This document shows positions 3,857-64,000 of a stretch of 64,000 nucleotides of DNA, piece by piece. The notes beneath the pieces were generated by a model that saw only the letters and a program-made list of their open reading frames with translations, searched no databases and had not been told where the DNA came from. Position 1 is the stretch's first letter, and every line of letters starts with the position of its first letter. The translations under genes and the position numbers were made by a program. Source of the stretch: Patescibacteria group bacterium (lineage in GTDB: Bacteria > Patescibacteriota > Patescibacteriia > 2-12-FULL-60-25); the NCBI GenBank assembly GCA_041661725.1, contig JBAZTX010000003.1:218794-282793 (forward strand), given 5' to 3'.

Positions 3857-3881
3857 AAAAAAACAGAGCCAGTTTGGCTCG
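3857..3881 (-). terminator. Intrinsic terminator of the GC-rich orphan gene 3904-4392
   Basis: On the minus strand: gagccaaactggctc hairpin followed by tgttttttt. Confidence 0.7.
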
Positions 3882-3903
3882 AGCTGAAAGCTTGTGTTGT
3901 CTG

Positions 3904-4392
3904 CTATGCGCAGCTACTACCGTCTTTTGGGAATATCACTTCGTCGTCAGGATCTGGTGCCGGAAAGGCTTTGTGTATGCCGGGGCCTTGCGGCGGATGG
4001 CTGGAACGCATGCGCTCTCCCAGAGTTGCGGTGAGCACGTTCGCGTTGCTGTCCGATGCAGGAATCGGAGTTGCGTCAGGCGAGCTCACTGTACGAGCTG
4101 GCTGCGGTGCGGCCTCTGTCTTGCCGTAGAGGCCTTTGGTTTGCTTGAGCCTCTCGTACTCCTCTTTTGTGATCACCGTTTTGTCTCCGCGGCGATTAAA
4201 CACTTTTTCCGGATCGACTTTAATGCCCTCGATCCATCGGCAATGTTCTGTAAAGTACTCCCCGTTTTTATCAATCGCGGCGATGAAATGGATGACGTGC
4301 TTACGGGGAGTGTGTCTATCTCCAAACGTGCCTTCTTCCAGCAGCACGACGCCATTGATGCCTCGCGCCGCGTATTTTTCAGGAGAAATCAT
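3904..4392 (-). CDS. Hypothetical protein (GC-rich orphan cassette)
   Basis: 162 aa ORF with ATG start, strong SD (aaggagg), and its own promoter and terminator. It is visibly GC-richer than its neighbours. I recognise no motif. Confidence 0.65.
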   Translation of the reverse strand: MISPEKYAARGINGVVLLEEGTFGDRHTPRKHVIHFIAAIDKNGEYFTEHCRWIEGIKVDPEKVFNRRGDKTVITKEEYERLKQTKGLYGKTEAAPQPARTVSSPDATPIPASDSNANVLTATLGERMRSSHPPQGPGIHKAFPAPDPDDEVIFPKDGSSCA

Positions 4393-4432
4393 GGCGCCTC
4401 CTTATCGGCGTGAATACGTTTTTAGCTTATTA

Positions 4433-4461
4433 AACTTAACAGATATTGCTAAAAGTGGCAA
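4433..4461 (-). promoter_or_regulatory. Sigma70-type promoter for 3904-4392
   Basis: Minus strand reads TTGCCA, 17 nt spacer, TAAGTT, about 40 nt upstream of the ATG. Confidence 0.6.
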
Positions 4462-4659
4462 GGACACTTGAGTCTATAAAGTCCTTCCATCCCCGCATTA
4501 TATATAGGCTATGGTGGACCCGCCGTAGACTTGGGCGCAGGCGGGTAAAGTCTGTAAAGCATGCCCTGAGCGAGCATGAGTTAACGCGAGTCGAACGGGT
4601 CCTTAAAGTTCGTAGTAATGAAAAAAAGAGCAGTTTCGCGACTTGCTCCGGTCGAGTGG

Positions 4660-4824
4660 TTATCTGACGGTGATGGTCTTGGCGAGGTGGCGAGGCCGAT
4701 CCGGATTGAGTCCTTTGGCGATAGCGACTTCGTAGGCAAAGCGCTGCAACAGAATGGTCCAGAGAATCGGCGCCGTAAGCCGCGGGATTTGTCGGGGATT
4801 TTTAGCAGGTAAAAGGGATCTAGG
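4660..4824 (-). pseudogene. glmS: Relic of the 3' end of glmS (glutamine-fructose-6-phosphate aminotransferase); last ~45 codons only
   Basis: Minus-strand frame gives ...TAPILWTILLQRFAYEVAIAKGLNPDRPRHLAKTITVR*. This closely parallels the conserved GlmS C-terminus (PLQLLAYHVA..KG.DVDQPRNLAKSVTVE). It has no start codon, an in-frame TGA lies at 4825-4827, and it abuts the ASCH gene stop. Confidence 0.75.
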
Positions 4825-5167
4825 TCAACAGTGTCACAACCCTAAACCCAATCACAACCACCGTCTCATTATCTGCGACCGGTCTTTTGTACATCTTTTC
4901 AAATACTTGTCTTTGCTTTTCTTTTGATTCATATTTTTCATGCTCTTTGCCATCCAGTGGAAGATCGATAAAAGTCGTCCGAGAAACATTAGCGACTTCG
5001 ATTTCGGCAAAGGGCTGATTGGTCGAGCTGTCTTTGACTAAAATAGTGTCTCCATTTTTCAGAAAACCGTATTTGTCGCCCAAACGGTAAGTCAGGGTTT
5101 TTGAGCCGTCTTTAACAAGCGGAACAAGCTCCGCCGCAAAACCAAGGATGATGTCGGTATGGTGCAT
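4820..5167 (-). CDS. ASCH (PUA-like) domain protein
   Basis: 115 aa. The N-terminal pattern FAAELVPLVKDGSKTLTYRL...GDTILVKD is typical of small ASCH beta-barrel proteins. Confidence 0.6.
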   Translation of the reverse strand: MHHTDIILGFAAELVPLVKDGSKTLTYRLGDKYGFLKNGDTILVKDSSTNQPFAEIEVANVSRTTFIDLPLDGKEHEKYESKEKQRQVFEKMYKRPVADNETVVVIGFRVVTLLT

Positions 5168-5264
5168 ATTAATAATGATTCTAGCACCATCTGAGTTACA
5201 TTTGAAAGGTTATCCCCTTGACAATCTCATCAAAATATGGAACCGGGTATATATAGGACATGAG

Positions 5265-5315
5265 AGTCCATAAAGTCAAAAGTCCATAAAGTCCATAAAG
5301 TCCTTAAAGTCCTAG
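5265..5315. repeat. Tandem ~9 nt stutter repeat (agtccataa x ~6)
   Basis: agtccataa-agtcaaa-agtccataa-agtccataa-agtccttaa-agtcctag. A related ataaagtcc word occurs at 4475-4490. Confidence 0.85.
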
Positions 5316-5418
5316 TATTGATGTAAGATTAATTTTTATGTTGGCAGAAGGCATGTAGGGTGTAAGATCGATTTGTCGATGTTACGTGCTACGTGTTATA
5401 TGTTACATGACTATATAT

Positions 5419-7236
5419 ATGTTGAATTTGTTAAAAAAGCACTTTGGATACGAAACGTTTCGTCCGTTGCAAAAAGAGATTGTCGAGCATTGCGTTGCGG
5501 GCAAAGACGCGTTGGTGTTGATGCCGACAGGTGGAGGCAAGTCTTTGTGCTACCAGTTGCCGGCTCTTAAATTCTCGGGATTGACGGTCGTCATTTCGCC
5601 TTTGATCTCGCTCATGAAAGATCAGGTCGACGCATTGCGCGCCAACGGCATTGCTGCGGCTTACATGAATAGCTCGCAAAGTCCGACAGAGAACAGGCAG
5701 GTGGAAGAGTCTGCGGCACGCGGCGAGATTAAGCTTTTGTATCTTGCGCCGGAGCGGTTGGCTATGCCGCGCACCGTCGACTTTTTGCACGGCCTGCAAA
5801 TCAGCTTGTTCGCGGTTGACGAGGCTCACTGCATTTCCGAATGGGGGCATGATTTTAGGCCGGAATATCGCAATCTTGTTTCGTTGCGTGATTTGTTTCC
5901 CGGAGTTCCCGTCCTCGCTTTGACTGCGACGGCTAACGCCCGCGTACAAGGAGATATAATCGCACAACTTAAACTGCAAGGAGGACGAGTCTTCCGTTCC
6001 AGTTTTGACAGGCCGAATTTAACTTATCGCGTGCTGCCCAAAAAACGTTCGCTGGATCGTTTGGTGCAAGAAATCCGCAAGCTTCCGAGTCAAGCGGCCA
6101 TAGTCTACTGTTTTTCGCGCAAACGTACGGAAAAGTTTGCGGCGGATTTATGCGCCAACAACATCAAAGCCGCTGCCTATCATGCGGGTTTGACTGCGGA
6201 TGAGCGTTCGCGCATTCAAGATGATTTTATTCATGATCGAGTCCCCGTCATCTGCGCAACGATCGCATTCGGCATGGGCATCGACAAACCCGATGTTCGT
6301 CTCATCGCTCACATGGATTTGCCAAAGTCAGTCGAAGGCTATTATCAAGAGACGGGTCGCGCCGGCCGCGACGGTTTGCCTAGTGAATGTCTATTGTTTT
6401 TCTCGAACGGCGACCGTTTTTTGCATAATTATTTCATCAATCGGATGCAGGATGCCGATGAAAAGGTCCGCGCTCGACGTCAACTTGATCAAATCAGCAA
6501 TTATTGCGAACAGGACAAATGTCGCCGCGCATTTTTGCTCAAATATTTTGGCGAGGAATACGTCAAAGGTAATTGCAATGGTTGTGACGTTTGTCTGCCA
6601 AAAACGGAAGTCGCAACTGTGCAGGAAGTCGAGTTTGACCGCGAACTGTTTGAGGAACTTCGCTTGCTGCGCCGATCAATCGCACAAGAAAAGTCCATAC
6701 CGCCGTATTTGGTTTTTGGCGACAGGTCTTTGCAAGACATGTCGCGCTGGTATCCTCAAAGTAAAGAAAACTTTGCAAAAATCTTTGGAGTTGCGGAAAA
6801 TAAATTGCGGGAATACGGCACAGCTTTCATCGATTCGATTCGCGAATATGCTGAAGCAAACGGCATTGGCGAGCGTGAAATTCCGGAGGCGACAAATAAA
6901 CCGGCGAGAATTTCGCGTGCTCTCACTCCAACGTATTTGACGACCGTTGAAATGTACAAAAAGATGATGTCGCTTGAACAAATCGCGCAAGCGCGTGGCT
7001 TGGTGGTCGGTAGCATAGTCAATCACCTGGAAAAAGCTTTTGAGCTGGGAGTCGATCTGGATTTTTCGCGTTTATCTTTTCCGGAGGATCGTCTAAACCG
7101 CATTGAATCGGCTTTTAAAAAATCAGGCAATGATTTTTTAAGCTCGGCGCGGGAGATTTTGGGAGAAGGATTTGAATATGATGAAATCAAAATCGCGAGA
7201 ATGATTTTGAAGGCGAGGGAACGTTCGATGAATTAA
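5419..7236 (+). CDS. recQ: ATP-dependent DNA helicase RecQ
   Basis: Motifs [30 protein letters not shown] and LTATA, a Zn-binding C-x-C...C-x2-C region ([12 protein letters not shown]...CNGCDVC) and an HRDC-like tail. The ORF track starts at GTG 5386; in-frame ATGs lie at 5407 and 5419. Confidence 0.9.
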
Positions 7237-14761: not shown

Positions 14762-17700
14762 ATGATCTTCGAAGATCCAACCCGCAGACGCTGGCGGATT
14801 GCAGTCGCGTCCTTTACGCTCATGGCCTTGCTCGGCTTGGTTTTAGTTAGCCTTTCGGCGGCTGCACTTATGACCAACCCGGAGCTTCCGGGTTTGGATG
14901 ATGGGACTAAAACTGCAAACGCAGCGTCGAGCCAACAAACGTCGATAGATGTTTTTGATGCTGTGTCGCAACCAAAGACGACGGAACAATGGAAATACAC
15001 GGGACCTGCAGTCGATGCGACCTTGATGGGTGCGGCGGTTACCGGCACCGCGCTGCTTGCATCTGTTTCAAAAAAAGGTTCTGCACTCAGCTCGGCTTTT
15101 TTATTGCAGCAAGACTCAAACAGCGTGCGTTCTTTTAAGGGGCATACTGCAAATTTAGACGTTGTATATCCGGATTGGTTTTTTCTTTCGCGTACCGATT
15201 GTTCGGTCGATGAGCGCATTAACCCGGATGTGACTTCAGTGTTGCATTCATCCGGCGTAAATATTGTGGCAAGATTGACTGACGGTGAGGGTCAGGCGAG
15301 CTATCAAAAGCAAGCGTCCGCCGTGATGAACGATCCGACTCTGCGCACCTGCGTGGCGCAAAAGCTGGCGGAAGAGACAATAAAAAATGGTGGCAAGGGT
15401 TTGTTGGTAGACATCGAGTCGCTGGATCCTGCGGATGGAAATGCGTATTTGAGTTTTTTGATTGAGTTGCAAAAATATTTGCACGCGCAGAACATGTGGT
15501 TAATTGTTGTGGTGCCTTCGGGCAGCCAGGCTTATCCGGTTGATGCGATCTCCAAAATTTCCGATGCGGTTCTTGTCGTCATGCACGGCGAACATTACGC
15601 TGCGAGCGCGCCCGGTCCGCTCGCAAGCCAAGGTTGGTTTGAAGAAACTCTAAATCATTTTTCGCAGATTGTTCCCGCAGACAAGCTCTTGGTCGGCTTG
15701 GGATCTTACGGTATGGACTGGCCGATTGCGCCTACTGGTACTGCCAGCGGCCTGACTTACGGCGAAATCATGTCCACTGCAAAAGTCTCCGGGGCGTTGC
15801 CAAAACTTGCGCCGAAAAGTTTGAATACGACTTTCGGTTATCAAGATGCAAACGGAGCAGAGCACAACGTGTGGGTGCTGGATGCGCTTGCGTTGTGGAA
15901 TCAGTGGAAGAAAGTCCAAACCGAAAAATCTCTCGGCGTCGCGGTTTGGCGATTGGGTTCCGAAGATCCAAATATTTGGAGTTTTTTGGCGAAATCAAAT
16001 CCAAGTATTGATGCGCTTAAAACTATCGGATCTATTTACAGCGTTTATTCTTCCACCGGCTCAGAGATTTTTAAGATTCAGTCCAACCCAACAAACGGCA
16101 GCATAAACATTTCGCAAAACAAAGACGGTTTGATACAAAATGCTGATTATACCAAATTGCCGTCCGGTTATATTTTATCGAGAGTAGGGAGTGCGCCTCC
16201 GGAGAAATCTTTGGTCTTGGCTTTTAGCGGCGGTCCGGATCCGGTTTGGACTCAGCGCATCATGGATACGCTCTCTTCTTTTGGAGTTCCGGCAGTGTTT
16301 TTTGTCACCGGCAGTCAAGCTGGTAAATATCCCGACGTATTGCAAAAGATTTCTGCGGCCGGTTATGTCATCGGAAATCGCAGCGACATCAGCCCGTCTG
16401 ATTTGCAGAGCGTTCCGACCGATCAGTTGAGAACGGAAGTGAATGCAACGCAGCGCATGATTGAAAATGCGACAAACCGTCACAGTCTGTTGTTTGAAAC
16501 AAACTATCCAAATACTCCGGAAGACGTCGCGCCGCTGACAACCGTTGCGGATTTGGGTTATGTGATTGTTGCGCCGAATGTCACGCCTAAAGATTGGGAG
16601 TCGACGGATGCTGATCAGCTTGTGGCTGATATTGAAAAGCGGATTACGGCACCGGAAAGTCACATAATATCTTTGCATGACGGCGGAGGCGATCGATCGG
16701 TTTTGATTTCTGCACTCAAGACGTTGATTCCCGCACTGCAGTCAAAAGGATATAAATTTATACGCATGGACGAGGCGATCGGTGTCAGTCAAAATCAACT
16801 TCTTCCGTCATATAACGGCAATGAAGCGGTTTTTGTAACCGCGACAAACATCGTGGATCGTATGCGCAATTTGTTTTGGCCGACCATCTTTTGGCTTTTC
16901 TTGATGACCACGTCTTTCTCGCTGTTTAGAATTTTGTTCATGAGCATCTTTGTTCTGCGCTCGACTAAAAAACACGGACGCAACAAAATCAGGGCACCGG
17001 GGAACAAATTCGTTTCTGTTTTGATTCCGGCTTACAACGAAGAAAAAACGATAGGCAAAACATTAGAGTCTTTGCAGGCCAGTACTCATCAACGTATGGA
17101 GATGATTGTCATTGATGACGGAAGTACGGATAGGACGGCTGAAGTGGTTGAGGAATATGCGGCCAAAGATTCTCGCATACGCTTGATTCGCAAACCCAAT
17201 GGCGGCAAGGCGACGGCACTTAATATGGGAATGCGCGAAGCGACTTATGATATTGCGGTCACGATTGACGCTGACACGATTTTGTTGCCGGAAACGGTCA
17301 ATGAATTAATTAAGCCTTTCGGCGATCCCACGGTCGACGCGGTTTGCGGCAATGTAGAAGTCGGCAACGTGCACAATGTACTCACCGGTTTTCAGGCGCT
17401 TGAATATATCACGGCACAGAATTTTGATCGGCGTTGTTTTGAGGAATTAAATGCGATCAGCGTTGTGCCGGGCGCGACAGGCGCATGGAAACGTCAAAGG
17501 GTTTTGGATATCGGCGGTTATGAAAGCGACACGCTTACGGAAGATGCGGATTTGACCATCAAAATGCTGGCCAGCGGCGGTCGAATCGTTTACGCGCCAA
17601 ACGCGCGTTCCAGAACAGAAGCGCCGGATAACCTCAGAGATCTTTCCAAACAGCGTTTTCGTTGGAGCTTTGGCACCTTCCAGTGTCTGGGCAAATATTC

Positions 17701-51721: not shown

Positions 51722-51749
51722 TGCTACCTCCTTCATCGTTGGTACGGGT

Positions 51750-51887: not shown

Positions 51888-51936
51888 AAGGTGGGTGGCT
51901 AGTCGTCCTCGTAGTCGTAGTACTCCTCGGTTTGCC

Positions 51937-52185
51937 CTAGCGGTTACGTGCGTGAGTTCTCGCCCGCTCGAAGTTGAAGTCGTCGAACAATTGGAAGACA
52001 ACGATGAGCATCCAGAAGCAAATGCTCAGAGTTGCCATTCCGACAGTCTCGAGCTTCAGAGTCTCCACGTCGCTGATTCCTCGCGCGGTGATCATGAGGA
52101 TCCAGCTCATCGCGAACAATGGTACTGTGATGATGGTTGCGAAGAGCGCCGCGTCTTTTACGCACGATAGCAAGATCTTGAACAT
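51937..52185 (-). CDS. Small two-TM membrane protein, hypothetical (GC-rich)
   Basis: 82 aa, ATG start, SD gggaga, two hydrophobic helices. Confidence 0.55.
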   Translation of the reverse strand: MFKILLSCVKDAALFATIITVPLFAMSWILMITARGISDVETLKLETVGMATLSICFWMLIVVFQLFDDFNFERARTHARNR

Positions 52186-52209
52186 GAGATTCTCCCTCGC
52201 GTTTTATGT

Positions 52210-52467
52210 TCAAAGCCAGCGGTTGTCGAGGTTGTGATGGAAGTCGCATTCCTCGGCATAGCGCTGGCGGAGTCGCCTGGGTGAGAAAATGAATTCGCCG
52301 ACCAAGGCCGCACGGCAGTCTTCGGGTGTGATAGGCCACAACCTGCGCAACATACGCAGATCCTCGCGCACTGTCTCCATTACACGGGGTGCTGCAGCCC
52401 AGAGCCCGACGATGTAGTAGAAACCAATGATGTTCAGGATCGTGCGAATCGCTCTTGTCATAGCCAT
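52210..52467 (-). CDS. Small membrane-anchored hypothetical protein (GC-rich)
   Basis: 85 aa from MAMTRAIRTILNIIGFYYIVGLWAA, SD aaggag. Confidence 0.55.
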   Translation of the reverse strand: MAMTRAIRTILNIIGFYYIVGLWAAAPRVMETVREDLRMLRRLWPITPEDCRAALVGEFIFSPRRLRQRYAEECDFHHNLDNRWL

Positions 52468-52578
52468 CTCCTTGTGGTGGAAGTTGCGAAACCGGTTACT
52501 GCCCCCGAATGAGACAAGCAAATTATCTCCTTTGGGGGAAGTTGCTCGCCGACTGGGTGCCGGCGAGCGAGGGTGGGA

Positions 52579-52965
52579 CTAATGATTGCAGAGTTTTGAG
52601 GTGAACCCGGCCAGCGTGCGTGTGATCGCGCCGAGCTTGAGGAGGCGAGCAAACTGTCCGTTGAATCGCGAAAGATGCACCCACTCGTCCTCTGTCCAGC
52701 GGTGCCAACTCCATGGAAATACCTGGAACCAGACACGTTCGAACGAGGACTTCTGATCATCGGGGAATCCGATGGGCCAGCCGTCGGCACCGAAGAACTC
52801 TGTCCGAGGGATCTCGCATTCCGTGACGCTCGCGCTGGGAGAATTCTCGGCGGTGAAATCCACTTTGAACACCGCTCCCGACGGCCAGGAATCAACATTC
52901 TCCGCTTCATCACGGAACGTGGGGCGCGGATCGTCTTCAGTGCCGAGAAAGTTGCTGCGGTTCAT
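52579..52965 (-). CDS. Hypothetical Trp-rich soluble protein (GC-rich)
   Basis: 128 aa from the first ATG. The ORF-track start at 52998 is TTG, so the start is uncertain. Confidence 0.5.
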   Translation of the reverse strand: MNRSNFLGTEDDPRPTFRDEAENVDSWPSGAVFKVDFTAENSPSASVTECEIPRTEFFGADGWPIGFPDDQKSSFERVWFQVFPWSWHRWTEDEWVHLSRFNGQFARLLKLGAITRTLAGFTSKLCNH

Positions 52966-53160
52966 GATCTCTCTGTCGTCTTGAGGGAACAGCGACAAAT
53001 ATCCGTCGCGCTTTAGCCGTTGATGCGGCTCCTCAAGACAGGTACTGTTTTATCAGTTCAATGTGCACCTCTTTGATTCCGGGGGTTGGATGATTTCCGG
53101 AATGCGTGACAATGATTTGGGTACAAATCAACATTACGCATTTCATAAATCTGATGCAAT

Positions 53161-53189
53161 AATTTAGCATAAATTAGCCATTTTGTCAA
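53161..53189 (-). promoter_or_regulatory. Sigma70-type promoter for the 52965-51937 gene string
   Basis: Minus strand reads TTGACA, 17 nt spacer, TAAATT. It would give a ~190 nt leader. Confidence 0.55.
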
Positions 53190-53230: not shown

Positions 53231-53436
53231 ACTAGAAACTGACAACTGTAAACTGGAAAGAGCGAATTAAGTTGTTAAGCACTGAGATTTCTCTCCCGCC
53301 TCCAACTGATACATGTCTGCGGGATCCCGAAGGAAGCGGGACACTTCGCTTTTACGCTACGGTCGAAATGACAGGAGGGGAGGAACTTTCCGGTAGAAAT
53401 GACGGAGGGTACTCTTTCCAGTTTACAGTTTCTAGT
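53231..53436. mobile_element. PE-1 element whose arms are separated by ~150 nt of other repeat-family sequence (nested insertion)
   Basis: Left arm actagaaactgacaactgtaaactggaaagagcg (53231-53264) and right arm ctctttccagtttacagtttctagt (53412-53436). The interior carries gggatcccgaaggaagcggg...cgctacggtcgaaatgaca, related to 50246-50362. Confidence 0.7.
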
Positions 53437-53451
53437 TTATCCTGTTGCAGT

Positions 53452-53673: not shown

Positions 53674-53777
53674 AATCCCACCCACAGGATCTCTCCGAAC
53701 GAAAGTAAATAAAAAAGAGCCCCACTTAGCCGAGGCTTCGTGGGGCAAGTAAGCTAGAGCGGAGCGTCCGCTCTTTT

Positions 53778-55136
53778 TTATTTCTTGCGCGCTGGAGGCG
53801 GATCGACGAAGTCTTGAATAGCTTGGTCGTTCACGCTGTCGCGCAATCCGCTGAAAATGTCGTCATTACTTCCTTCGGCGACATGCTCAGCGTGGGTGAG
53901 CGGACGAACATTTCGGATTTCGTCCGGAATGCCGATCGAAGATGTTTGGGTCCCATCGAAGGCAGGATCTCTTTCGACGCCCGTAGGAACATTGATCCCT
54001 CGCGGCCGTGAAGAAGTCTCGGGTCGTGAACCGAATTCCGCTGTGCGCCGAGGGTCGAAATGTGATTGAGCTACTGGAAGCGGCGGCGGTGTTATTCGTC
54101 TCGCCGGAGCCGGCCTAGGTGCGCGCGCCGGCGGCGGGATGACGACCGGTGCGGAAGGTTCTTCTGGCTCGAGTCCGATCGACATAGTCTCTCTTGGTTC
54201 TGCCAGGCTTACGCTCGCCGGCGATTCGTCATCCGCAATAACTTCGAGTTCGCCGGTAGAAACGTCATCCCAGTCGATTGAGTCGTCTGCTTGTGCTGCT
54301 GACGGCTCGACGGAATCCAGGAATCGGAGAGACAGTGCCTCGATATCGTCTTCATCAGCCGGCGGCGGTTCCTCACCTAAGAGCAAGTGCAGTGCCGCGT
54401 CGCGGATGAACATCTTGGGATTGTCGCGACTGATCATGTCCAGTCCGCGCTGAATACGATTCGCGTGCAGCTCGAGCTCGCTCTGGCGTTGTCGAGCTTC
54501 TTCAATGACGCGCTGCGCCGCTTCCGCTGCCTGCGTCGCTTTTTCGGCAAGGGTCTTGTAGCGCTCCAAGGCGTTGTCACGCAGCGCCTTCCAGTCAGCA
54601 TGCTCTTCGTCCATCCTGATAGTCCGACGGCGCATAGAATCAACGAGCTGCTTGAACTTGCCGTTCTCTTGGATCTGCAATTCGAGCTCTTCCTGGATAC
54701 TCTCGAGAAGTGCGAGATCGCCGCGGTTGGCAGCTGGATTTTTAGGCAGGCAGCCGGTAGCTACGATGCCTTGCAGAACCAAAGACTGCTGCGAGACGGA
54801 CAGGACGACTTCCTTGAGCATGAGCATACTCGCCAGGATGTCGGGTACGGGAATCGCCTCGATTACCGCGCGTTCACTGACGACGCGATAGCGGATTCGG
54901 TATCCCATGTTTTGCGTCGATGCTGGGTGAAAACGGAAGTAGTCACCCTCTTCCAGGCGGTCGACGGTTTTGAACTGGTTTGCTGACTCCAACTCAATAT
55001 CCACGGAGCCCGCCTTCACCTTAAAGACGCAACCCGGATATTTGTCGACGTCGATCAGCTTGTCCCTGGCGCGGACAAGAGTTGATCTCGAAGCAGACTG
55101 TGAAGATACGAAACGGTTGAGCTTGTCGCTTGCCAT
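53778..55136 (-). CDS. GC-rich hypothetical protein: N-terminal beta-barrel-like domain, coiled coil, long Pro-rich acidic tail
   Basis: 452 aa from ATG 55136 (SD gaggag). The ORF-track TTG start at 55274 lies inside the -35 box. GDYFRF within the N-domain is faintly cNMP-binding/cupin-like. Confidence 0.65.
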   Translation of the reverse strand: MASDKLNRFVSSQSASRSTLVRARDKLIDVDKYPGCVFKVKAGSVDIELESANQFKTVDRLEEGDYFRFHPASTQNMGYRIRYRVVSERAVIEAIPVPDILASMLMLKEVVLSVSQQSLVLQGIVATGCLPKNPAANRGDLALLESIQEELELQIQENGKFKQLVDSMRRRTIRMDEEHADWKALRDNALERYKTLAEKATQAAEAAQRVIEEARQRQSELELHANRIQRGLDMISRDNPKMFIRDAALHLLLGEEPPPADEDDIEALSLRFLDSVEPSAAQADDSIDWDDVSTGELEVIADDESPASVSLAEPRETMSIGLEPEEPSAPVVIPPPARAPRPAPARRITPPPLPVAQSHFDPRRTAEFGSRPETSSRPRGINVPTGVERDPAFDGTQTSSIGIPDEIRNVRPLTHAEHVAEGSNDDIFSGLRDSVNDQAIQDFVDPPPARKK

Positions 55137-55246
55137 TAGACTCTCCTCGTAGATCCCCGCAGCATTATGCGCAGGGGAAAGAACGATTGTTTTTGTTTTA
55201 AATCTTTCATCCGGCGCTACTCGCAAAGAGCTTAGCCGAACGTGTG

Positions 55247-55274
55247 ATTGTACATTTTTTTGGGACTTTGTCAA
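55247..55274 (-). promoter_or_regulatory. Near-consensus sigma70 promoter for 53778-55136
   Basis: Minus strand reads TTGACA, 16 nt spacer, TACAAT, giving a ~110 nt leader. Confidence 0.7.
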
Positions 55275-55282: not shown

Positions 55283-55353
55283 AACTAGAAACTGGAAAGA
55301 GCGATTCGGTTTAACACATAACTCTTTCCAGTTTCTAGTTTCCAGTTTTCAGT
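55283..55353. repeat. PE-1 palindromic element, full copy
   Basis: aactagaaactggaaagagcgattcggtttaacacataactctttccagtttctagtttccagttttcag. Its right arm encodes the last codons (ILKTGN) and the TAG stop of the methyltransferase gene. Confidence 0.85.
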
Positions 55354-56534
55354 ATCCTTACGTTCCTACGCAGATGCTGTCCGGTTCTTTCGTAATACAT
55401 GTCCATTTGCCTTAGATTGGCGGGCAAATCCTCCAAAGCGAATCCCAGTGACGCAAAGTCGATGTCCGAATCCGTTGCAATGATTTGCGAGCCGACTTTG
55501 TAAGACGGAAAAATGGCAACAATGCGTCCATCTTTTTTCATCAATGGTTTAAGCGCTGCCAGAGCATCTTTCCAAAGTTGAGTGATTTGAGATGCGTTTT
55601 TTTGAATCTCGCTCAACGATTCGCGGCCTCTCAAGGCAGGTCCGAGCCAGCCTTCCGTAACAACCGCATCAATCGATTTCGGCGAAAGATAGTGCCCGAC
55701 TTCTTTTACATCAGAAGTAAAAACTTTAAAACGAGTTTCATCGTCTTGCGATAAAATATTTTTATTCAAAAGCCATTCTAAGTTTCCGGAAGTGTCATCC
55801 GTTTGTCGTTCGTCGATGTCGCTGCCGATTATTTTTGTTTCGCTTGTCGCCAAAGCGGCTTCCATTAAAATAGTGCCTGATCCGCAAAACGGATCCAACA
55901 AAGTTCCGCCGTCCGGCGTTTGTGCAAGATTGACCATCATGCGCGCAAGTTTTGGCGGCAACATTCCGTTGATATCATCGCGGCATGGGCGGCCGTAATC
56001 GCGCAAACTCCACGCGTCAGCATCTTGTACCTGCGTTGTGCGTCCCAAAAAAGTTTTGCCTTTGTCGAGCATCAAACAAAAATCTGCGTTTGGTTGTTCG
56101 GTCAGATGGCATTTGGCCACCGCGGCAGGGGAGAGCGGCTGCCCGCCTTCGCCGCTGACCCAACGGATCTTCCATCCCAATTCTTTTAATGCACGTTTAA
56201 TGTGCAATGGATATTTTTCAAAAATCTTTTTTTCTTTTCCATTTCCTCCAAAGGACGTCCAACCGAATTCAAGACCTGTCATCTCTTGTTTGCCGGAGGC
56301 GAGCTGTGCAATATCTGCAGCTTTCAAATCCGTGCCTTTTGACTCCAAAATCACGTCGCCGAGCTTAATGACTCCGCCAAGTTGGCTCATTAGAACATCA
56401 GCCTGCCAGTCGTTCATCTCCACGATGCAGGTGTTTGGAGTTTGGGAGACTATTTTCGCCTTTGGTTTAAAAGCCAAAAATTCCGCTAAAGATAGCCGTG
56501 GATGGTTGCCGAAGACAAGAAAGTGGAGAGCCAT
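55335..56534 (-). CDS. THUMP-like + class I SAM-dependent RNA (guanine-N2-type, Trm11/RlmL-like) methyltransferase
   Basis: N-terminal FLVFGNHPRLSLAEF, SAM motif I LLDPFCGSGTILMEAAL, motif IV-like DAVVTEGWLGP. Start taken at MALHF; the upstream extension consists of cgtccc repeat words. Confidence 0.65.
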   Translation of the reverse strand: MALHFLVFGNHPRLSLAEFLAFKPKAKIVSQTPNTCIVEMNDWQADVLMSQLGGVIKLGDVILESKGTDLKAADIAQLASGKQEMTGLEFGWTSFGGNGKEKKIFEKYPLHIKRALKELGWKIRWVSGEGGQPLSPAAVAKCHLTEQPNADFCLMLDKGKTFLGRTTQVQDADAWSLRDYGRPCRDDINGMLPPKLARMMVNLAQTPDGGTLLDPFCGSGTILMEAALATSETKIIGSDIDERQTDDTSGNLEWLLNKNILSQDDETRFKVFTSDVKEVGHYLSPKSIDAVVTEGWLGPALRGRESLSEIQKNASQITQLWKDALAALKPLMKKDGRIVAIFPSYKVGSQIIATDSDIDFASLGFALEDLPANLRQMDMYYERTGQHLRRNVRILKTGN

Positions 56535-56712: not shown

Positions 56713-58716
56713 ATGTCTCACCACGTACTGTCCGTACTGTATTCGATCGTTGGACGGAGGGGAGCGTTGTCGCTGGTAACCCTCCTCGTCACTCTTCTCG
56801 TCGCGCTGACTGCGCAGACCGCGCGTGCCGACGACAACCCGTACGCTTCTGAAGCCTGCGTGACGACGATCAACCCCGACAAGGTGATTGGCGACAAGCA
56901 CTTCAGCGTCATCACCATCAACAAAAGATTGGCGCACGAGAGTCCTAAGACGTGCAGTCTTCGGACCGCGCATCAGATACACCCGATCGTCGTCGACGGC
57001 AAGCAGCTTGATGTCGAGTCCTGGTTGCGCAGCGTGTACGCCGCCAATCAGAGCGAGCATCCGACGGTTTTGTGCCGTTGCGTGTCGCGCTCCGGAAAGG
57101 TGTCGCAGTGCTCAACCGGAACAGATTCGTTCTGCTCCGATGGCACAGTAGCCAACATCATGGGCGTACCATCCAACGGGTGGAAGGCTTATATTCTCAT
57201 TCCGAGCACGTTAATGCTTACTCAAGAGCAGAGGAACATCGCTGCCGCCAAGGCCGCATGTGCCGAGGCAAGCGGTGCGAGCGCCATTAATGCGTGTCGC
57301 GAAGCAGGCCTTCTTCTGCAGACTCCCGGTCCCGCGGTCCCTTATGTCAGCGATGCAGAGATCTTCAAGAAGGAGATGGAAGCTTCGAAGGCCAAGGTCG
57401 CGGAGATGACGACCAGGCTCGCGCAGATGGATGAACAACTGGTCGAAACCCAGAAGGCGCTTGCCGCTGCGCGCTCTGATGCGAACTCATGGTTGTTGGG
57501 AGTCGTAATAGAGGCGATTGCGTACGCCGTTCTTAACTTGGTTCTCGCCTGGTACATCTGGACCAAGCGAAAGCTCGCAAAAGAGCTCAAGAAAGAACGC
57601 GCGGCAAACGAGGAACTCAACCGTGCAAACCTGGAGTTGCATGCAGGGCTGGCTAAGGCCGGCGACTTCTTGAAACAACAAGGCCTCGAACATCGCAAGG
57701 CCATGTCGCGGCTTGAGAACGAAGCGCGTGATGAAATCAGGCGCCTCAAGGATGAAAACAAAAAGCTCGATCAAGAGCTGAACAAGACCAAGAATGTCTT
57801 GCGCAACGTCAATATCGACAAGGCGACGAAAGAGGTTGAGGAAATCCGACAGGAAATTGCTAGACTCAACCTGCTCCGCACCGGCGACGTCGAGGTCTTG
57901 AGTCAGCGCTTGAGTCAGATTCCCGGCGAAGCCGCCGCTCTAACTCAGCCGTCCGACAGACGTGCTGACAAGATGAATAAGGTCATTGAATTCTACAGCG
58001 GTGAGCTTGGTGATCTCATCCAGGGCTGTGCGCCGGACGGTTACAGTCTCGTGCCGCCGGCTATGGACGACATGGATCAGGCGAAGCGTTTGGTTGCCAA
58101 GATCGCGCGCCTTGTCGCCGACAAGGAAATTGAACTCGAGGCGCTGCGCCAAGCGGCTCCTCTCGCAGTTCGGCCTTTGAACGACAACGCCGCTAGTGCG
58201 GCTGACTCTGCATCTTCCGCGGGCGCGGCTGATTCAGCCCCCGCAGGAAGTCCTAAGGACATCGACGACGCGACCATGATTCGCGCCGTGGACAAAGTTG
58301 TTGACCTCTTGTCCCACTGGTTCGAAGCTCTGCGCCGCGTTGCAGAACTTGAAACGCGCATCAAGACGTCGCAAGACGTTGTTCGCGCTCTCAAAGATCC
58401 GTTCAATATACCGGCAGTGCAGTCGGGGCTCGATGCGCATCGCATCGAGTTGGGAGACGCTCGCAAAGAGGAGAATGAGCTAAGTAATAAGCTCAACTCG
58501 CTGGGAGCGAATCGACTCACGCTCCGCGCGGCGGAAGTCTCCAAGGATGACTACGTTGATCTTGTGAAGGTAAAGTCGATCATTCTCCAAGAACTGATTG
58601 ACGTCTTGAACCATGCGGCTCCGGCCGCAAGAGTTGGCGCTGCGCCTACTGCGTATGCGCATACTATTCCGCCGCCAAACGGCACAGACGATCCAAATGG
58701 TGGACACTCCACCTGA
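56713..58716 (+). CDS. GC-rich membrane protein: Cys-rich extracytoplasmic domain, one TM, long cytoplasmic coiled coil
   Basis: Signal/anchor LVTLLVTLLVALTAQTARA, 12+ Cys in the first 230 aa, TM WLLGVVIEAIAYAVLNLVLAWYIW, then heptad-rich K/E/L sequence. SD gggaga. Confidence 0.7.
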   Translation: MSHHVLSVLYSIVGRRGALSLVTLLVTLLVALTAQTARADDNPYASEACVTTINPDKVIGDKHFSVITINKRLAHESPKTCSLRTAHQIHPIVVDGKQLDVESWLRSVYAANQSEHPTVLCRCVSRSGKVSQCSTGTDSFCSDGTVANIMGVPSNGWKAYILIPSTLMLTQEQRNIAAAKAACAEASGASAINACREAGLLLQTPGPAVPYVSDAEIFKKEMEASKAKVAEMTTRLAQMDEQLVETQKALAAARSDANSWLLGVVIEAIAYAVLNLVLAWYIWTKRKLAKELKKERAANEELNRANLELHAGLAKAGDFLKQQGLEHRKAMSRLENEARDEIRRLKDENKKLDQELNKTKNVLRNVNIDKATKEVEEIRQEIARLNLLRTGDVEVLSQRLSQIPGEAAALTQPSDRRADKMNKVIEFYSGELGDLIQGCAPDGYSLVPPAMDDMDQAKRLVAKIARLVADKEIELEALRQAAPLAVRPLNDNAASAADSASSAGAADSAPAGSPKDIDDATMIRAVDKVVDLLSHWFEALRRVAELETRIKTSQDVVRALKDPFNIPAVQSGLDAHRIELGDARKEENELSNKLNSLGANRLTLRAAEVSKDDYVDLVKVKSIILQELIDVLNHAAPAARVGAAPTAYAHTIPPPNGTDDPNGGHST

Positions 58717-58745
58717 CCCCCACACTTCTCGGGGTCTCTTTTTTT
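58715..58745 (+). terminator. Intrinsic terminator
   Basis: gacccc-cacacttctc-ggggtc followed by tcttttttt. Confidence 0.75.
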
Positions 58746-60967: not shown

Positions 60968-61020
60968 ATGACATTTAATAACCAATAAACAATTCTGGCT
61001 ATCGTCTATCGTCTAATAAT

Positions 61021-61947
61021 ATGAACAATCCCGAACAAATACAGTCCGCCGCGCAAGAGAGTGAAGACTCCGGAGTGCGGGAGAAAAATGAAAGATTGAC
61101 GCTGCGTGTCAAACCGGATGAGGCGCTTGAGCCATACGAAGAAAACATTAAGCCTCAATTGGAGAGATATGTCGCAAATGCGGGGGAGTTTTTGAATCAA
61201 CTGCATGTTTTGCGCGATCTCGAAAAAAGTAATTTTTCCAAAGATAAAGAATCAATAAAAAATGCAAAAGAAAACTTACTTTCTTTGTTCAATGCAAAGT
61301 TGTTTGTAGATTTTTACGGTCGCGACAGCGGTGAGGCGCTTGAGAGTTTGTCCGGTCTGCTGGATCTGCCGGAAGATGTAAAAGAAGAATTGCAAAATAG
61401 GGTTTTAGCACGTTCTTCAAAAGATGTTGCAACTTTGCGGCAAAAGCAAGAGGAGATAACACAGACGGAGATTGATGTTAATCCTCCAATTGCATCAGCG
61501 TTTGAAGATGCACCTGTGGCAATCCCTGTGGCGGAAGTTTCTACATCCCGTCAAATCCCCAAAGAAAAACCTGCAGCTGAGACGGAAAGCGAAAATGAAT
61601 TAATGATGAAATTGACGCTTGCCAAAAGAGTTTTGCGCGATATGGAGAAAGAGCTCAGGAAGAACTATGCAGACGCTGAAGGTGATGAGAGAAAAACTAT
61701 AAAATTAAAATTGGATGAAAACGGCAAGCTGCAAGATCGTTTGGCAAATGAGTTAGATGACGTTTTAAGTCAAATGCCATCGCTGCATCAAGGAGAAAGA
61801 GATTTGTTTCCTGATCAAGGCAGCGAGCATATGGTTGTTGTAAGGCAGTCTCTTGCTAAGGTTCTGACTGATATTAATAAATTCATTGAGAAGCAGACGA
61901 ACGGCGTCATTCATCAGCCTTCTGATTGGCTCGAGCTAAATAGATAA
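61021..61947 (+). CDS. Acidic, helical/disordered hypothetical protein
   Basis: 308 aa, E/K/D/L-rich, ending ...HQPSDWLELNR. It is convergent with a small CxxC protein gene 21 nt away. Confidence 0.65.
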   Translation: MNNPEQIQSAAQESEDSGVREKNERLTLRVKPDEALEPYEENIKPQLERYVANAGEFLNQLHVLRDLEKSNFSKDKESIKNAKENLLSLFNAKLFVDFYGRDSGEALESLSGLLDLPEDVKEELQNRVLARSSKDVATLRQKQEEITQTEIDVNPPIASAFEDAPVAIPVAEVSTSRQIPKEKPAAETESENELMMKLTLAKRVLRDMEKELRKNYADAEGDERKTIKLKLDENGKLQDRLANELDDVLSQMPSLHQGERDLFPDQGSEHMVVVRQSLAKVLTDINKFIEKQTNGVIHQPSDWLELNR

Positions 61948-61967
61948 AAAAAGAGGACCCAGATGGG

Positions 61968-62330
61968 TCAAGATGCGCAGAGCTCGATCATAGCTCTGCG
62001 TATTTCGTTTAGCTTGTTAGTCGCCTGCCTTGAGACGCCGAGTTGTTCCGCTTTTGGCAGAGCGGCGGCAATGCAGCGCGGGAAATTTTCGAAGTGTTCC
62101 CAGTCCGGCATATCGTCGGCAAATGCTTCATTGAGCTGCGGTGTTCCCCGCAGAATGTCAAGAAAGGCATTGATCAACACTACGAAATCCCATTGCTTGA
62201 AGGTGCTTTCGCGAGCAACCTTCCTACACATCTCGTGGGTCGGGTTGCCGTTGCCGTCAATCACGATCTCTTCGGCCGTTGATCCGGGTTGATTACAATG
62301 GATGCAGACGAGATTGGAGTTCACGTCCAT
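61968..62330 (-). CDS. Small GC-rich CxxC...HxxC (zinc-ribbon-like) protein, paralog 1
   Basis: 120 aa. N-terminus is VCIHCNQP-x17-THEMC. SD gaggtg. The 5' region is homologous to that of 63451-63879. Confidence 0.65.
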   Translation of the reverse strand: MDVNSNLVCIHCNQPGSTAEEIVIDGNGNPTHEMCRKVARESTFKQWDFVVLINAFLDILRGTPQLNEAFADDMPDWEHFENFPRCIAAALPKAEQLGVSRQATNKLNEIRRAMIELCAS

Positions 62331-62442
62331 GATGCACCTCGTTTTGAGCGGTTTGGAGCATGACCGAGTAGTCCTCGGCCGAATGGAGCACCTTGGCAGA
62401 TATATTGAATCATGTCAAGGCTAAAAGGTAAAAAAACCGGCT

Positions 62443-62471
62443 TTGACAAAAGGGTAAAAAAATGCTATACT
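62443..62471 (+). promoter_or_regulatory. Near-consensus sigma70 promoter upstream of 62601-63404
   Basis: TTGACA, 17 nt spacer, TATACT. The ~125 nt leader ends in the hairpin cccaagc-gatta-gcttggg + tttaaaatt (62558-62585), 16 nt before the ATG. Confidence 0.65.
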
Positions 62472-62600
62472 GTATTAAGTAAATCAAAATAAAAGCTAAG
62501 TTATGCAGAGTTCGCGTATTGATTCAAGATTTTATACATCATAAAAAGTTAAAAACGCCCAAGCGATTAGCTTGGGTTTAAAATTAACAAAAACAAAAAT

Positions 62601-63404
62601 ATGTATTCACCCGAAATGAAGTTATCGCCCGAGAACATACCGCAGCTTCCGGACAAGGACGTTGAGTCTGTAAGGACATCGCCTTCTGAAATGGCGCCGA
62701 CTATTAAGATGCTTAAGCCGGAAGATGTGCACGGCCCGTTGGAAGCGATGCCGGAGACTTTGGTGAAAACAGTCAGGCCGGAGGCCGTTGGGATGGAAGA
62801 GTATGTTGAGCCGGACGAGTCTATTACTTTAAAAACAGATGCTACTGTCGCTCGCGAAAAACAATCGCTCGCCGAAAAAGCGCCGACAGTCAGAACTGAG
62901 GAATCTGTTGCGCTTAAAGCTTCGGAAGTCCAAACATTTAAAACAGGCGAGACGGTCGCAAGAGAAGATGCTTTGGCAAAAGCGAGAGCCGATTTTCATG
63001 AAAGCGGGATTGCGGCATCCAAAGAAACGATTAGAAATTTCGATCAGATGCACATGGAGTATGATGCAATCCACGATCGCGTAACAAAGTGGCTGGATAA
63101 GCTGGACGAGATGCTTGCACAACCAAGTCCTTTGTCCGAACTTGCCGGTCTTAAAGATCAGGCGATGAAAGCAAAAGCACAGATCGAGGGCCAGCTTGAT
63201 TTGGAACAGTACGGTATTGCAAAATCAGAATCGGGTGCTGCCCCGTTTAAGGTTGAAGTTCCCACCGACTGGCCGCAGCTTGAGGCTCGTTTAAATGAAA
63301 TAGCGGAAACGATGAAAGCCGGACATACTTTGAGGGAGCAGCCATTGCCCACCATCAAAGAACAGCCGACAGCCAACGCTCAAGGTCCTGAAGCAACGGC
63401 GTAA
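62601..63404 (+). CDS. Acidic, disordered/helical hypothetical protein
   Basis: 267 aa with repeated (K/R)(T/P)E-type segments. It contains ...VPTDWPQLEARLNE, reminiscent of the PSDWLELN end of 61021-61947. Confidence 0.65.
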   Translation: MYSPEMKLSPENIPQLPDKDVESVRTSPSEMAPTIKMLKPEDVHGPLEAMPETLVKTVRPEAVGMEEYVEPDESITLKTDATVAREKQSLAEKAPTVRTEESVALKASEVQTFKTGETVAREDALAKARADFHESGIAASKETIRNFDQMHMEYDAIHDRVTKWLDKLDEMLAQPSPLSELAGLKDQAMKAKAQIEGQLDLEQYGIAKSESGAAPFKVEVPTDWPQLEARLNEIAETMKAGHTLREQPLPTIKEQPTANAQGPEATA

Positions 63405-63450
63405 AATTATTAAAAAAAGAGCCCTCACTTCCAGAGTCGAAGTGGGGGTT

Positions 63451-63879
63451 TTAGTTTGCGCCGGTAGAAGCCAGATGTCGTATCCGGTCCCGCAGACCGT
63501 CGACCGTCTCGACCAGACGGGATTTGTTGTTGGTTGTGAAAGACGAGCTCTCAACCAACTTCGACGCCTGATCCAGACACTTGATGTAGTCGATGATGGT
63601 AGCCTCTCCGGGCACCCAGTATTCCCTGAAAAGCTCCATGAGCTCGTCAAGGGGTTTCGGTAATTCGCGGCAGAGCGCGGTGTATGCCTTGAGCCAGAGG
63701 CCATGGGCTGTGGACGCGATCGCGAGCTGATGCACATCTTTTTTCAAGCAGCGGCGATGCATATTCGCCTCGCTCTCGTATTTATACTCCGGGCCGTGCA
63801 GAATCGGTTGTTCGCAGAGCTTGCAGACCGGTTGTGTCGAGGATGAATCCAGGGGCTGTCTGATGGTTTTGGTGCTCAT
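63451..63879 (-). CDS. Small GC-rich CxxC...HxxC (zinc-ribbon-like) protein, paralog 2
   Basis: 142 aa. N-terminus is VCKLCEQP-x15-MHRRC. SD gaggtg. TTGACA lies at 63959-63964 (minus strand). Confidence 0.65.
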   Translation of the reverse strand: MSTKTIRQPLDSSSTQPVCKLCEQPILHGPEYKYESEANMHRRCLKKDVHQLAIASTAHGLWLKAYTALCRELPKPLDELMELFREYWVPGEATIIDYIKCLDQASKLVESSSFTTNNKSRLVETVDGLRDRIRHLASTGAN

Positions 63880-64000
63880 GACTCACCTCGTTTTTGGTTG
63901 GGAGCGCGGCTCCGCGTGAACGGAACCGAATGGGATAGCTTGGCAAAAATCCGGGTTTTTGTCAAGATGTCTGTATATGAATTTGGACAAAGTTATTATA

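Follow-up and report, generated by a model that had tools for sequence, protein, structure and literature searches.

Lineages exist that are poor in Shine-Dalgarno (SD) sequences while retaining the anti-SD sequence of the 16S rRNA (PMC6847099, PMC7797042), and they form the background to this work, which concerns a 64-kb stretch of DNA from a Patescibacteria contig (JBAZTX010000003.1; the whole stretch is called the window below) where a minority of SD-led genes is scattered among conserved genes that mostly lack an SD. In Flavobacterium johnsoniae, which belongs to the Bacteroidia, SD sequences are scarce, the anti-SD is conserved but sequestered, start codons sit in an A-rich, Kozak-like context and a few genes, such as rpsU, are SD-led (PMC6847099, PMC7797042, PMC9976891). 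The anti-SD of the 16S rRNA is sequestered in such systems by bS21, bS18 and bS6, and the context of the SD-less genes has A at positions -3, -6, -12 and -13 (PMC6847099). The window resembles the Bacteroidia in that most of its genes have no SD and an A/U-rich, weakly structured upstream region, while a minority has a strong SD; no SD precedes 45 of 49 core genes in the window or, at four related loci, 37 of the 39 genes with a Pfam match. It differs in its dominant context, which is U at position -1 (84% of core genes), in the size of its SD-led minority (about 20% of genes) and in the nature of that minority, which is made up of lineage-specific accessory genes and not of an autoregulated ribosomal protein gene.

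In Escherichia coli a U directly 5' of the start codon enhances initiation measurably by pairing with the initiator tRNA at A37 (PMC10018350). The window has the same base at the same place, but in E. coli U(-1) adds a slight modulation to what the SD does, whereas here it is nearly fixed in the SD-less genes and, with one exception, absent from the SD-led ones. This distribution suggests that U(-1) may substitute for the SD in the window. Actinobacteria and Deinococcus are examples of genomes that mix leaderless and SD-led genes. Like the mixed genomes described by the GeneMarkS-2 models (PMC6028130), the window seems to use more than one mode of initiation, with the -10 box of some core genes ending 6-12 nt ahead of the ATG. 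Unlike in those genomes, leaderless candidates cover just a part of the SD-less class; SD-less starts with U(-1) are also found at core genes that have long leaders or lie inside operons, and the partition follows the division between conserved and accessory genes and is accompanied by a split in codon usage.

The SD-led units also call to mind prophage morons and small acquired islets of ORFans, which are single genes with their own promoter and terminator and a composition unlike that of their flanks; bacterial ORFans are usually AT-richer than the host. The units of the window likewise lie between conserved genes, are restricted to the lineage, evolve fast in some cases and have their own promoter and terminator. 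Unlike morons and ORFans they have neither a prophage context nor a viral homologue, are GC-richer than the host, use native promoter types, are stable in sister species and have a stationary composition.

An earlier note on this DNA had listed 12 transcription units, comprising 14 genes in all, that are referred to here as the set. The gene table was built from the public gene calls and Pfam marks of identical contigs and holds 61 genes, to which two were added in a region that the note had called a string; 12 set genes (14 with the two added operon genes) were compared with the 49 other, or core, genes. All open reading frames of the note's list are present in independent public annotations of identical contigs. 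The analysis covered this one window and about 15 related loci (labelled L010 to L116). NCBI lists proteins identical to those of the window under the name Patescibacteria group bacterium. The window has a GC content of 48.6% and contains one tRNA-His and no further Rfam match. Judged by NifS, its nearest species-level genomes are metagenome-assembled genomes (MAGs) of the Uhrbacteria, Magasanikbacteria and Patescibacteria types, the best match being 70% identical, and the window genome is that of a member of the Patescibacteria (Candidate Phyla Radiation, CPR) related to the Uhrbacteria- and Magasanikbacteria-type MAGs. Our reading, to which we attach a probability of roughly 0.55, is that the window holds two gene classes that differ in their mode of translation start, and that the accessory class is long resident in the genus and has been exchanged within the Patescibacteria at depth.

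Translation-start signals of the two classes

An SD precedes every set gene when the gene is read from a start that gives a sensible N-terminus; AAGGAGG, AGGAGG, GAAGGAGGT and GAGGTG are examples, and the weakest belongs to orphan560, which has GAGAGGA only. Just four of the 49 core genes have an SD (Fisher p=8e-11 when both added operon genes are included), which bears out the earlier observation of a strong SD on most of the set and none on most core genes. Position -1 separates the classes too. It is T (U in the mRNA) in 41 of the 49 core genes (84%; examples are at 767, 5418, 33624 and 48454) and in one of the 14 set genes (7%; p=2e-7). T(-1) is found at operon-internal core genes as well and is therefore more than a preference of the transcription start. 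The core class, whose 49 genes lie between 768 and 63404 on both strands, thus combines the lack of an SD and T(-1) with an AU-rich segment from -20 to -1, in which GC content is 32% against 52% in the set; A makes up 33-47% of the bases at positions -8 to -2 of core genes. The predicted fold of the region from -30 to +30 is weaker in the core (-6.6 kcal/mol) than in the set (-10.2 kcal/mol).

The position of the -10 boxes suggests that some core mRNAs are leaderless. An extended -10 (TGNTANNNT) stands 6-12 nt before the ATG of four core genes, those for ASCH (4820-5167), HflX (32426-33571), FGGY (35663-37258) and GpsA (45314-46363), where our estimate of the number expected by chance is well under one. 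A TANNNT at the same distance precedes 13 of 35 first genes; neither TANNNT nor an extended -10 lies 6-12 nt before any of the 14 set genes.

The division extends to related loci. In four of them (L108, L110, L115 and L116; GC content 48-67%) an SD precedes 16 of 23 Pfam-less genes and two of 39 Pfam-positive genes (p=1e-7), and in the GC-rich hosts the GC contrast between the classes is gone while the SD contrast is kept. Core orthologues in L010, L013, L092, L114 and L116 likewise have T(-1). Orthologues of set genes keep the SD even where protein identity has fallen to 48% (orphan171 in L115, orphan170 in L110), and its conservation in such diverged orthologues argues that SD pairing is functional in these organisms. 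The sole related locus with a 16S rRNA, that of the distant relative L094, has a canonical 3' end (GGATCACCTCCTT).

Base composition and codon usage

The set is GC-richer than the core (0.563 for the 12 genes and 0.474 for the 49; Mann-Whitney p=4e-7), with single genes between 0.52 and 0.63. The contrast that the earlier note had drawn by eye is therefore real, but its estimate of 60% against the mid-40s overstated what we compute as about 56% against 47%. GC3 is 0.668 in the set and 0.513 in the core (p=1.5e-6), which together with the codon tables confirms the preference for G/C-ending codons that had been noticed, and there are smaller shifts in GC1 (0.60 and 0.53) and GC2 (0.43 and 0.385). 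Two-fold codons separate the classes almost completely, with a GC3 of 0.65 in the set and 0.37 in the core (p=2e-7), while at four-fold codons the difference is small (0.63 and 0.56). The fractions of individual codons in set and core are 0.78 and 0.28 for TTC, 0.79 and 0.42 for TAC, 0.68 and 0.28 for AAG, 0.66 and 0.38 for GAC, and 0.39 and 0.12 for CTC; preferences within the four-fold boxes are common to both classes (CCG about 0.5, GGC about 0.45, CGC about 0.39, GCG about 0.34).

Two simple causes of this bias were rejected. The genes for S6, S18, SSB, trigger factor and the H+-PPase follow the core pattern (two-fold GC3 0.35-0.55), and the bias of the set is therefore not the high-expression bias of the genome. 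Nor does it follow from the strand, because minus-strand core genes are not GC3-rich.

Promoters, terminators and strand

The pattern TTGACN-17-TANNNT occurs 11 times in the window against 1.5 expected; core units account for six of them (tig, the ABC transporter, the H+-PPase, Rrf2-NifS-NifU, S6-SSB-S18 and hyp267) and set units for four. Enrichment is confined to this stricter pattern, as a generic sigma-70 scan gave overall counts near the shuffle expectation. Several set promoters match the consensus at 10-11 of 12 positions, and the extended -10 TGCTA, often with TTGACAAA too, is common to set and core promoters. A hairpin followed by a T-run ends every set unit, and such terminators are also found after core units. 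The promoters of the TTGAC-17 type and the hairpin terminators that the earlier note had described on the set are thus genuine, but neither sets it apart from the core. The set favours the minus strand, which holds 12 of its 14 genes and 16 of the 49 core genes (p=6e-4), and its genes have their own promoter and terminator largely because they are single genes opposite in strand to their neighbours. The picture of self-contained cassettes with foreign signals is not supported by these results, the promoter consensus being that of the core and the four-fold codon preferences being close to those of the core.

The terminator tail CTCTTTTTT is present in 11 copies against 1.6 expected, among them those at 2884, 4622, 29846, 31795, 53711, 53771, 58736, 61947 and 63413. 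Six copies end set units; others end the genes for the CDP-OH transferase, ferredoxin (Fd) and ASCH.

Conservation in relatives and turnover of slots

Seven of the units are found at the same place in related genomes, where both the SD and the GC-rich codons are preserved; five of them are present in two close relatives. L116 (GCA_028688515.1), whose core proteins are 88-98% identical to those of the window and which is collinear with its 14-35 kb region, carries the HAD gene (90% identical), orphan171 (57-61%), orphan560 (92%) and orphan161 (56%) at the same sites, on the same strands and with SD and GC-rich codons kept. The sister species represented by L114 has orphan155 at the same site (87% identical, GC3 0.74 vs 0.78); this is the sole homologue found, and its synonymous divergence from the window gene equals that of the neighbours. 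These five units are present in place in L116 or L114, and absence was seen only in more distant relatives. After L116, the next relatives of the HAD protein are 46-49% identical, and those with a name are Patescibacteria.

In L116, L092 and L093 the interval from BacA to the ECF sigma gene holds a positional orthologue of orphan560. The orthologue has a GC content of 62% in L092 (host 46.6%) and 65% in L093 (host 59%), and a GC3 of about 0.68 is maintained in hosts of 46.6-59% GC; two-fold GC3 lies at 0.64-0.73 and four-fold GC3 at 0.59-0.69, against 0.19-0.63 and 0.47-0.82 in the neighbouring genes. Such constancy contradicts the idea of a donor codon signature, which would be expected to decay. 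Across the set class, orthologues have a GC content of about 52-66% in hosts of 47-67%.

All homologues that carry an organism name are Patescibacterial. An origin from phages, plasmids or defence systems was rejected after no relatives of set genes were found among PHROG, PADLOC, IMG/VR, phage records or plasmid records. The sole viral-type domain that we saw in the SD class is in the 1.24-Mb relative L115, where an SD-led (GGAGGTGA), GC-richer Phage_30_3 gene lies at 15533-16033.

At greater distance the slots between conserved genes change their contents. L012, L014 and L015 have nothing inserted between NifU and Fd, where the window holds 2.4 kb containing orphan170 and a three-gene operon. 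Members of the orphan170 family that are 58-73% identical occur in other contexts, on GC-rich metagenome contigs (61.5% and 67% GC), among small SD-led genes between glycosyltransferase genes, and one of them is annotated as Patescibacteria. The slot between GpsA and hyp369 holds orphan155 in the window and a gene of 526-530 aa in L010, L011 and L013. Orphan482 has a diverged positional orthologue between Fd and a methyltransferase (MTase) in L010 (E=6e-13), with genes in the same slot in L011, L013 and L014; the counterpart of orphan677 is a large plus-strand gene after the MTase in L012 to L015, to which it has weak similarity (E=4e-4 to the L012 gene; E=0.002 to an 898-aa gene between NifU and Fd in L010).

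Two units have diverged as wholes. Window and L116 share about 60% nucleotide identity over the entire orphan161 and orphan171 units, promoter and terminator included, between flanks of 80-100%, and the edges of both units are sharp, that of the orphan161 unit lying at 32400. Three genomes have orphan171 alleles that are 57%, 51% and 50% identical in pairs, while the adjacent PPDK_N is 92% and 78% identical. Low identity across whole units with sharp edges is what is expected from the replacement of anciently diverged alleles, and not from uniformly fast evolution.

Proposed histories of the two gene classes

The earlier note was right to see two expression styles interleaved at single-gene resolution and no single island. 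Its suggestion that cassettes had been acquired repeatedly holds at the depth of the clade, where slots gain, lose and swap units; recent import does not fit units that are in place in sister genomes. One class consists of conserved, mostly annotatable genes without an SD, with an AU-rich, weakly structured upstream region and U(-1), some of them probably leaderless; we propose that their initiation is independent of the SD and that U(-1) aids it by pairing with the initiator tRNA at A37. The second class comprises the roughly 14 lineage-restricted genes of the 12 transcription units together with a gene for a CDP-alcohol phosphatidyltransferase. Its genes have a predicted leader of 27-110 nt and a canonical SD at a distance of 5-8 nt from the start; they lack U(-1), their codons are GC-richer and their start region is more structured, and its units have a native-type sigma-70 promoter, an intrinsic terminator and, in most cases, an orientation opposite to that of their neighbours. 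These genes fill variable slots between conserved operons and are inherited in place within the genus, while in the wider clade the slots would be filled, emptied and swapped by exchange among Patescibacteria. Exchange between lineages, which we favour over class-specific selection, would keep the composition of the class constant; the GC contrast is visible because accessory genes with a composition of their own stand in a host whose core is AT-leaning.

Several points weigh against this proposal. The starts of five set genes were picked partly because an SD precedes them; a conserved motif and its spacing are what point to functional SD pairing in the window organism, and part of the Parcubacteria have no anti-SD motif (PMC9297842). 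HAD, orphan560 and orphan155 diverge no faster than their neighbours in the sister genomes, and exchange is therefore documented for two units and by slot comparisons only. The split between the classes is imperfect: a radical-SAM gene has an SD yet is AT-leaning, cdd, S18 and a tadA-like deaminase gene are fairly GC3-rich without an SD, and the Pfam-less genes hyp249, hyp267, hyp308 and hyp369 behave as core genes. The four-fold preferences that the set shares with the host fit residence with selection as well as they fit exchange.

Class-specific selection on codons and mRNA in the absence of gene flow is a serious rival to exchange, if an unlikely one. The SD-led genes would then be native and depend on stable mRNAs or on expression that is high or comes in bursts, with selection acting for C/G-ending codons, a strong SD, promoters close to the consensus and strong terminators. 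This would account for a shift that is strongest at two-fold or weak codons (TTC, TAC, AAC, GAC, ATC, CTC and AAG) and leaves the GC-rich four-fold boxes unchanged, as is classical for codon choice under selection, for a composition that is stationary across hosts, for the several set promoters that match the consensus at nearly all positions and for the retention of the SD in orthologues. Against it, the genes for S6, S18, SSB, trigger factor and the H+-PPase lack the bias, and the G-ending codons of Lys, Glu and Gln together with the higher GC1 and GC2 point to general GC pressure and not to the matching of tRNAs. It also leaves unexplained the non-syntenic family members, the empty slots and the 60% identity that extends over non-coding parts of whole units.

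Recent and repeated acquisition of cassettes from GC-richer, SD-using donors outside the lineage (the host, other phyla or phages), with signatures not yet ameliorated, is distinctly improbable, and as far as recency is concerned it is largely refuted. Distinct GC3 and SD usage, single-gene units with their own promoter and terminator, the repeats that bracket the orphan155 and orphan170 units, the empty slots of distant relatives and the Phage_30_3 gene in L115 all speak in its favour. It does not agree with the identical positions and core-like divergence of HAD, orphan560 and orphan155 in sister genomes, with the constant GC3 of orphan560 over deep divergence, with a promoter type common to core operons and four-fold preferences that are the host's, or with homologues that are Patescibacterial wherever they are named and that did not appear in the viral, plasmid and defence collections.

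GC-biased gene conversion (gBGC), under which the units would be recombination hot spots with a raised GC3, could draw on the mosaic divergence between the window and L116, with tracts of 99-100% identity beside tracts of 60%, and on the synonymous divergence of the genes next to orphan161 and orphan171 (CofD 39%, HflX 30%, PAP2 37%, over a baseline of 10-20%). We regard it as very unlikely. In the GC-rich hosts L093, L108 and L110 the families are equal to or lower than their neighbours in GC, where gBGC should always raise it, and the partition of SD and U(-1) is left without an explanation. The effect of gBGC reported for bacteria is a few percent, far below the +0.28 found here at two-fold sites.

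An artefact of amino-acid composition, with Ala/Pro/Arg/Gly-rich, low-complexity surface proteins raising the GC content, is highly improbable. The set is richer in Ala, Arg and Pro and poorer in Lys than the core, and orphan560 has 17% Ala, 10% Pro and 8% Arg and a GC2 of 0.56, but GC3 is the most shifted position, the small globular orphans 155, 170, 142 and 83 have a GC3 of 0.70-0.78 with ordinary GC1 and GC2, and the synonymous-codon tables refute amino-acid composition as a sufficient cause.

Chimeric joins with a GC-richer organism during assembly or binning, a possibility raised by the earlier note and by a structural difference left of RecQ, are excluded by set-unit junctions that are 99.8-100% identical in all four independent assemblies of the contig, which come from at least four samples (ENA ERZ27249449, JGI 3300014208 and two Logan runs), and that recur in two sister genomes. 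The difference left of RecQ concerns positions ~5168-5419, with a breakpoint near 5279 that does not coincide with any set unit: in the ENA assembly RecQ is joined to BipA and a peptidase S8 gene, and ASCH/orphan162/tig is followed across the join by AT-rich DNA of about 39% GC that holds pseudouridine synthase genes, while the JGI/NCBI assembly has the arrangement of the window. Either populations differ structurally here or a repeat has caused a misjoin.

If the split between the two classes holds genome-wide, the clade is a natural case in which the class of a gene, be it of the conserved core or of the flexible accessory pool, sets its mode of initiation. It bears on the evolution of SD-independent initiation in CPR bacteria, whose ribosomes are reduced and in some cases lack the anti-SD motif (PMC9297842), and may be the strongest natural example of U(-1) as a determinant of the start site. 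One could go further and imagine that the proteome of the whole clade is split, with a 'U-AUG', SD-independent mode for the core, based on quadruplet pairing with the initiator tRNA and in part leaderless, and an SD mode for a compositionally autonomous, exchanged accessory pool whose translation could be tuned jointly through the availability of the 16S anti-SD. This extension is doubtful in our view; were it true, the accessory set could be switched as a group, in the way that ribosomes lacking bS21 act on rpsU in Flavobacteria. On the practical side, an SD, a base other than U at -1 and C/G-ending two-fold codons offer a rule for calling genes in MAGs of Patescibacteria and for recognising the flexible ones among them. 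Genes of long residence can stably keep a GC-rich signature that looks foreign, which calls for caution in the detection of horizontal gene transfer by composition.

The units and their products

Only the HAD gene of the set has a Pfam domain; the other set genes gave no match in Pfam, NCBIfam, PHROGs or PADLOC, in agreement with their earlier description as mostly motif-less orphans. Surface-type products, which had also been suggested, are predicted in part, from sequence features of orphan560, orphan677 and further small transmembrane (TM) or secreted proteins. Models from AlphaFold2 were of low confidence (pLDDT 45 for the orphan170 family, about 46-47 for the orphan171 family).

The orphan162 unit (3866-4461, minus strand) runs from a TTGCCA-17-TAAGTT promoter at 4433-4461 through the SD AAGGAGG and the coding sequence (CDS) at 3904-4392 to a terminator of GAGCCAAACTGGCTC and a T-run at 3866-3880. 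The product has 162 aa and no domain, the gene has a GC content of 0.54, and it was found in three other assemblies. Next to it, the minus-strand gene for the CDP-alcohol phosphatidyltransferase (2884-3768, CDS 2908-3768), which the earlier note had not listed, belongs to the SD class by every criterion, with the SD GGGAGGA, C at -1, a GC3 of 0.70 and the tail CTCTTTTTT.

The HAD-IA hydrolase unit (18544-19363, minus strand) has a TTGACC-17-TAATAA promoter, the SD AGGAGG, its CDS at 18579-19307 and a terminator at 18544-18560. Matches to PF00702 (E=1.7e-12) and PF13419 (E=3.7e-12) support the earlier HAD-like assignment; TIGR01549 is above its cut-off and no equivalog model reached the cut-off.

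The orphan171 unit (23853-24537, minus strand) has a TTGACT-17-TATGTT promoter at 24509-24537, the SD AAGGAGGAG, its CDS at 23927-24442 and a hairpin terminator. Its product had been called a histidine phosphatase. The window protein itself has no Pfam match, His_Phos_1 is found in two of four family members with a marginal best E of 0.007, and searches of PDB sequences gave no usable match and none that supports a histidine phosphatase; N-terminal RRHAHH and GVGHSP motifs are visible, and the protein is possibly a divergent histidine-phosphatase-like protein. In three genomes it adjoins, in antiparallel orientation, PPDK_N/PEP-utilizer genes (window 23927-24442, L115 10001-10600, L116 10001-10522), and it may be a phosphohistidine phosphatase that acts on the swivel domains of PEP-utilizers.

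Three PEP-utilizer paralogues with a phosphohistidine swivel domain lie in tandem after a separate PPDK_N gene (window 20428-23852, L116 10587-13936) and share a 176-nt 3' segment. The first two are in swapped order in L116 and are 89-91% identical when correctly paired. The third is 99-100% identical to its L116 counterpart over about 700 nt, which suggests recent recombination in this tract.

Orphan560 (28097-29854, plus strand; CDS to 29746) has no separate consensus promoter; it has the weak SD GAGAGGA and a terminator tail at 29846-29854. Its product, with a signal peptide, an Ala/Pro-rich region and a C-terminal membrane anchor, is a predicted surface protein. The orphan161 unit (31795-32377, minus strand) has a TTGACA-17-TATGGT promoter at 32349-32377, the SD GGAGGA, its CDS at 31824-32309 and a tail at 31795-31803.

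The orphan155 unit (46375-47224, minus strand) has a TTGACA-17-TATACT promoter at 47089-47117, the SD AAGGAGA and a CDS at 46542-47021 that encodes a small protein with six Cys and a hydrophobic N-terminus. It is bracketed by inverted arrays of the 9-mer CGTACATNG at 46375-46476 and 47120-47224. With a further array at 37927-38009, these palindromic arrays lie just upstream of the GpsA, orphan155 and ECF-sigma/alpha-2-macroglobulin (A2M) promoters, and they may serve as operators to which one shared regulator binds, or represent a small repeated element.

The orphan170 unit (51115-51778, minus strand) has a TTGACC-17-TAAATA promoter at 51750-51778, the SD GAAGGAGGT and its CDS at 51224-51721. 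Its 3' element and terminator (51115-51200) have a near-identical copy of about 90 nt at 51810-51894, at the end of the three-gene operon (51811-53189, minus strand). This operon is what the string at 51937-52965 resolves into, a group of small proteins with its own promoter (TTGACA-17-TAAATT, 53161-53189) and terminator (51811-51856); the CDSs are at 52579-52965 (128 aa), 52210-52461 (83 aa, SD AAGGAGA) and 51937-52185 (82 aa, two TM segments, SD GAGGGAGA).

The orphan482 unit (53711-55274, minus strand) has a TTGACA-16-TACAAT promoter at 55247-55274, the SD GAGGAG, its CDS at 53778-55136 and a terminator at 53718-53737, and its product has a coiled coil and a Pro-rich tail. Orphan677 (56713-58744, plus strand; CDS to 58716) has the SD GGGAGA and a CCCC...GGGG terminator followed by TCTCTTTTT; an N-terminal TM segment or signal, a Cys-rich ectodomain, a TM segment and a long cytoplasmic coiled coil are predicted for its product.

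The orphan120 unit (61947-62445, minus strand) has a TTGACA box near 62413, the SD GAGGTG, its CDS at 61968-62330 and a terminator of GACCCATCTGGGTC and CTCTTTTTTT. The orphan142 unit (63413-63965, minus strand) has a TTGACAAA box at 63958-63965, the SD GAGGTGA, its CDS at 63451-63879 and a terminator at 63413-63450. Both proteins have an N-terminal CxxC...HxxC; paralogy was rejected, as no similarity is detectable between them.

Other repeats in the window

Long hairpins built from GAAACTA/GAAACTG heptamers stand at gene ends at 597-680, 26916-26958, 53231-53262 with 53412-53438, and 55283-55355. They are up to 88% identical between copies, and an insert of 150 nt interrupts the one at 53231-53438. 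The first 80 nt of NifS as annotated recur in inverted orientation upstream of Fd (48880-48945 against 53260-53373), with 97% identity over 32 nt and an extension at 74%. The NifS proteins of relatives align from residue 34-37 onward only; therefore the true NifS start is probably about 100 nt downstream and the 5' segment an intergenic repeat.

Heptamers of GTCGTCT/ATCGTCT in tandem, with TCGTCTAA(T/A) at the end, immediately precede the start codons of Glyoxalase2 (18142-18171), PPDK_N (19455-19485) and hyp308 (60995-61020), and an inverted copy of the array is found inside HflX (33165-33194). A 40-nt motif that contains TGTTACATGAC is located directly upstream of both RecQ (5377-5416) and Rrf2-NifS-NifU (48417-48456), 83% identical between the two sites, and could be an Rrf2-type operator. 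Finally, a tandem repeat of the heptamer GGGATTC, detected as a long hairpin, is situated at 38832-38868 on the antisense strand near the 5' end of the gene for the 1766-aa A2M protein.

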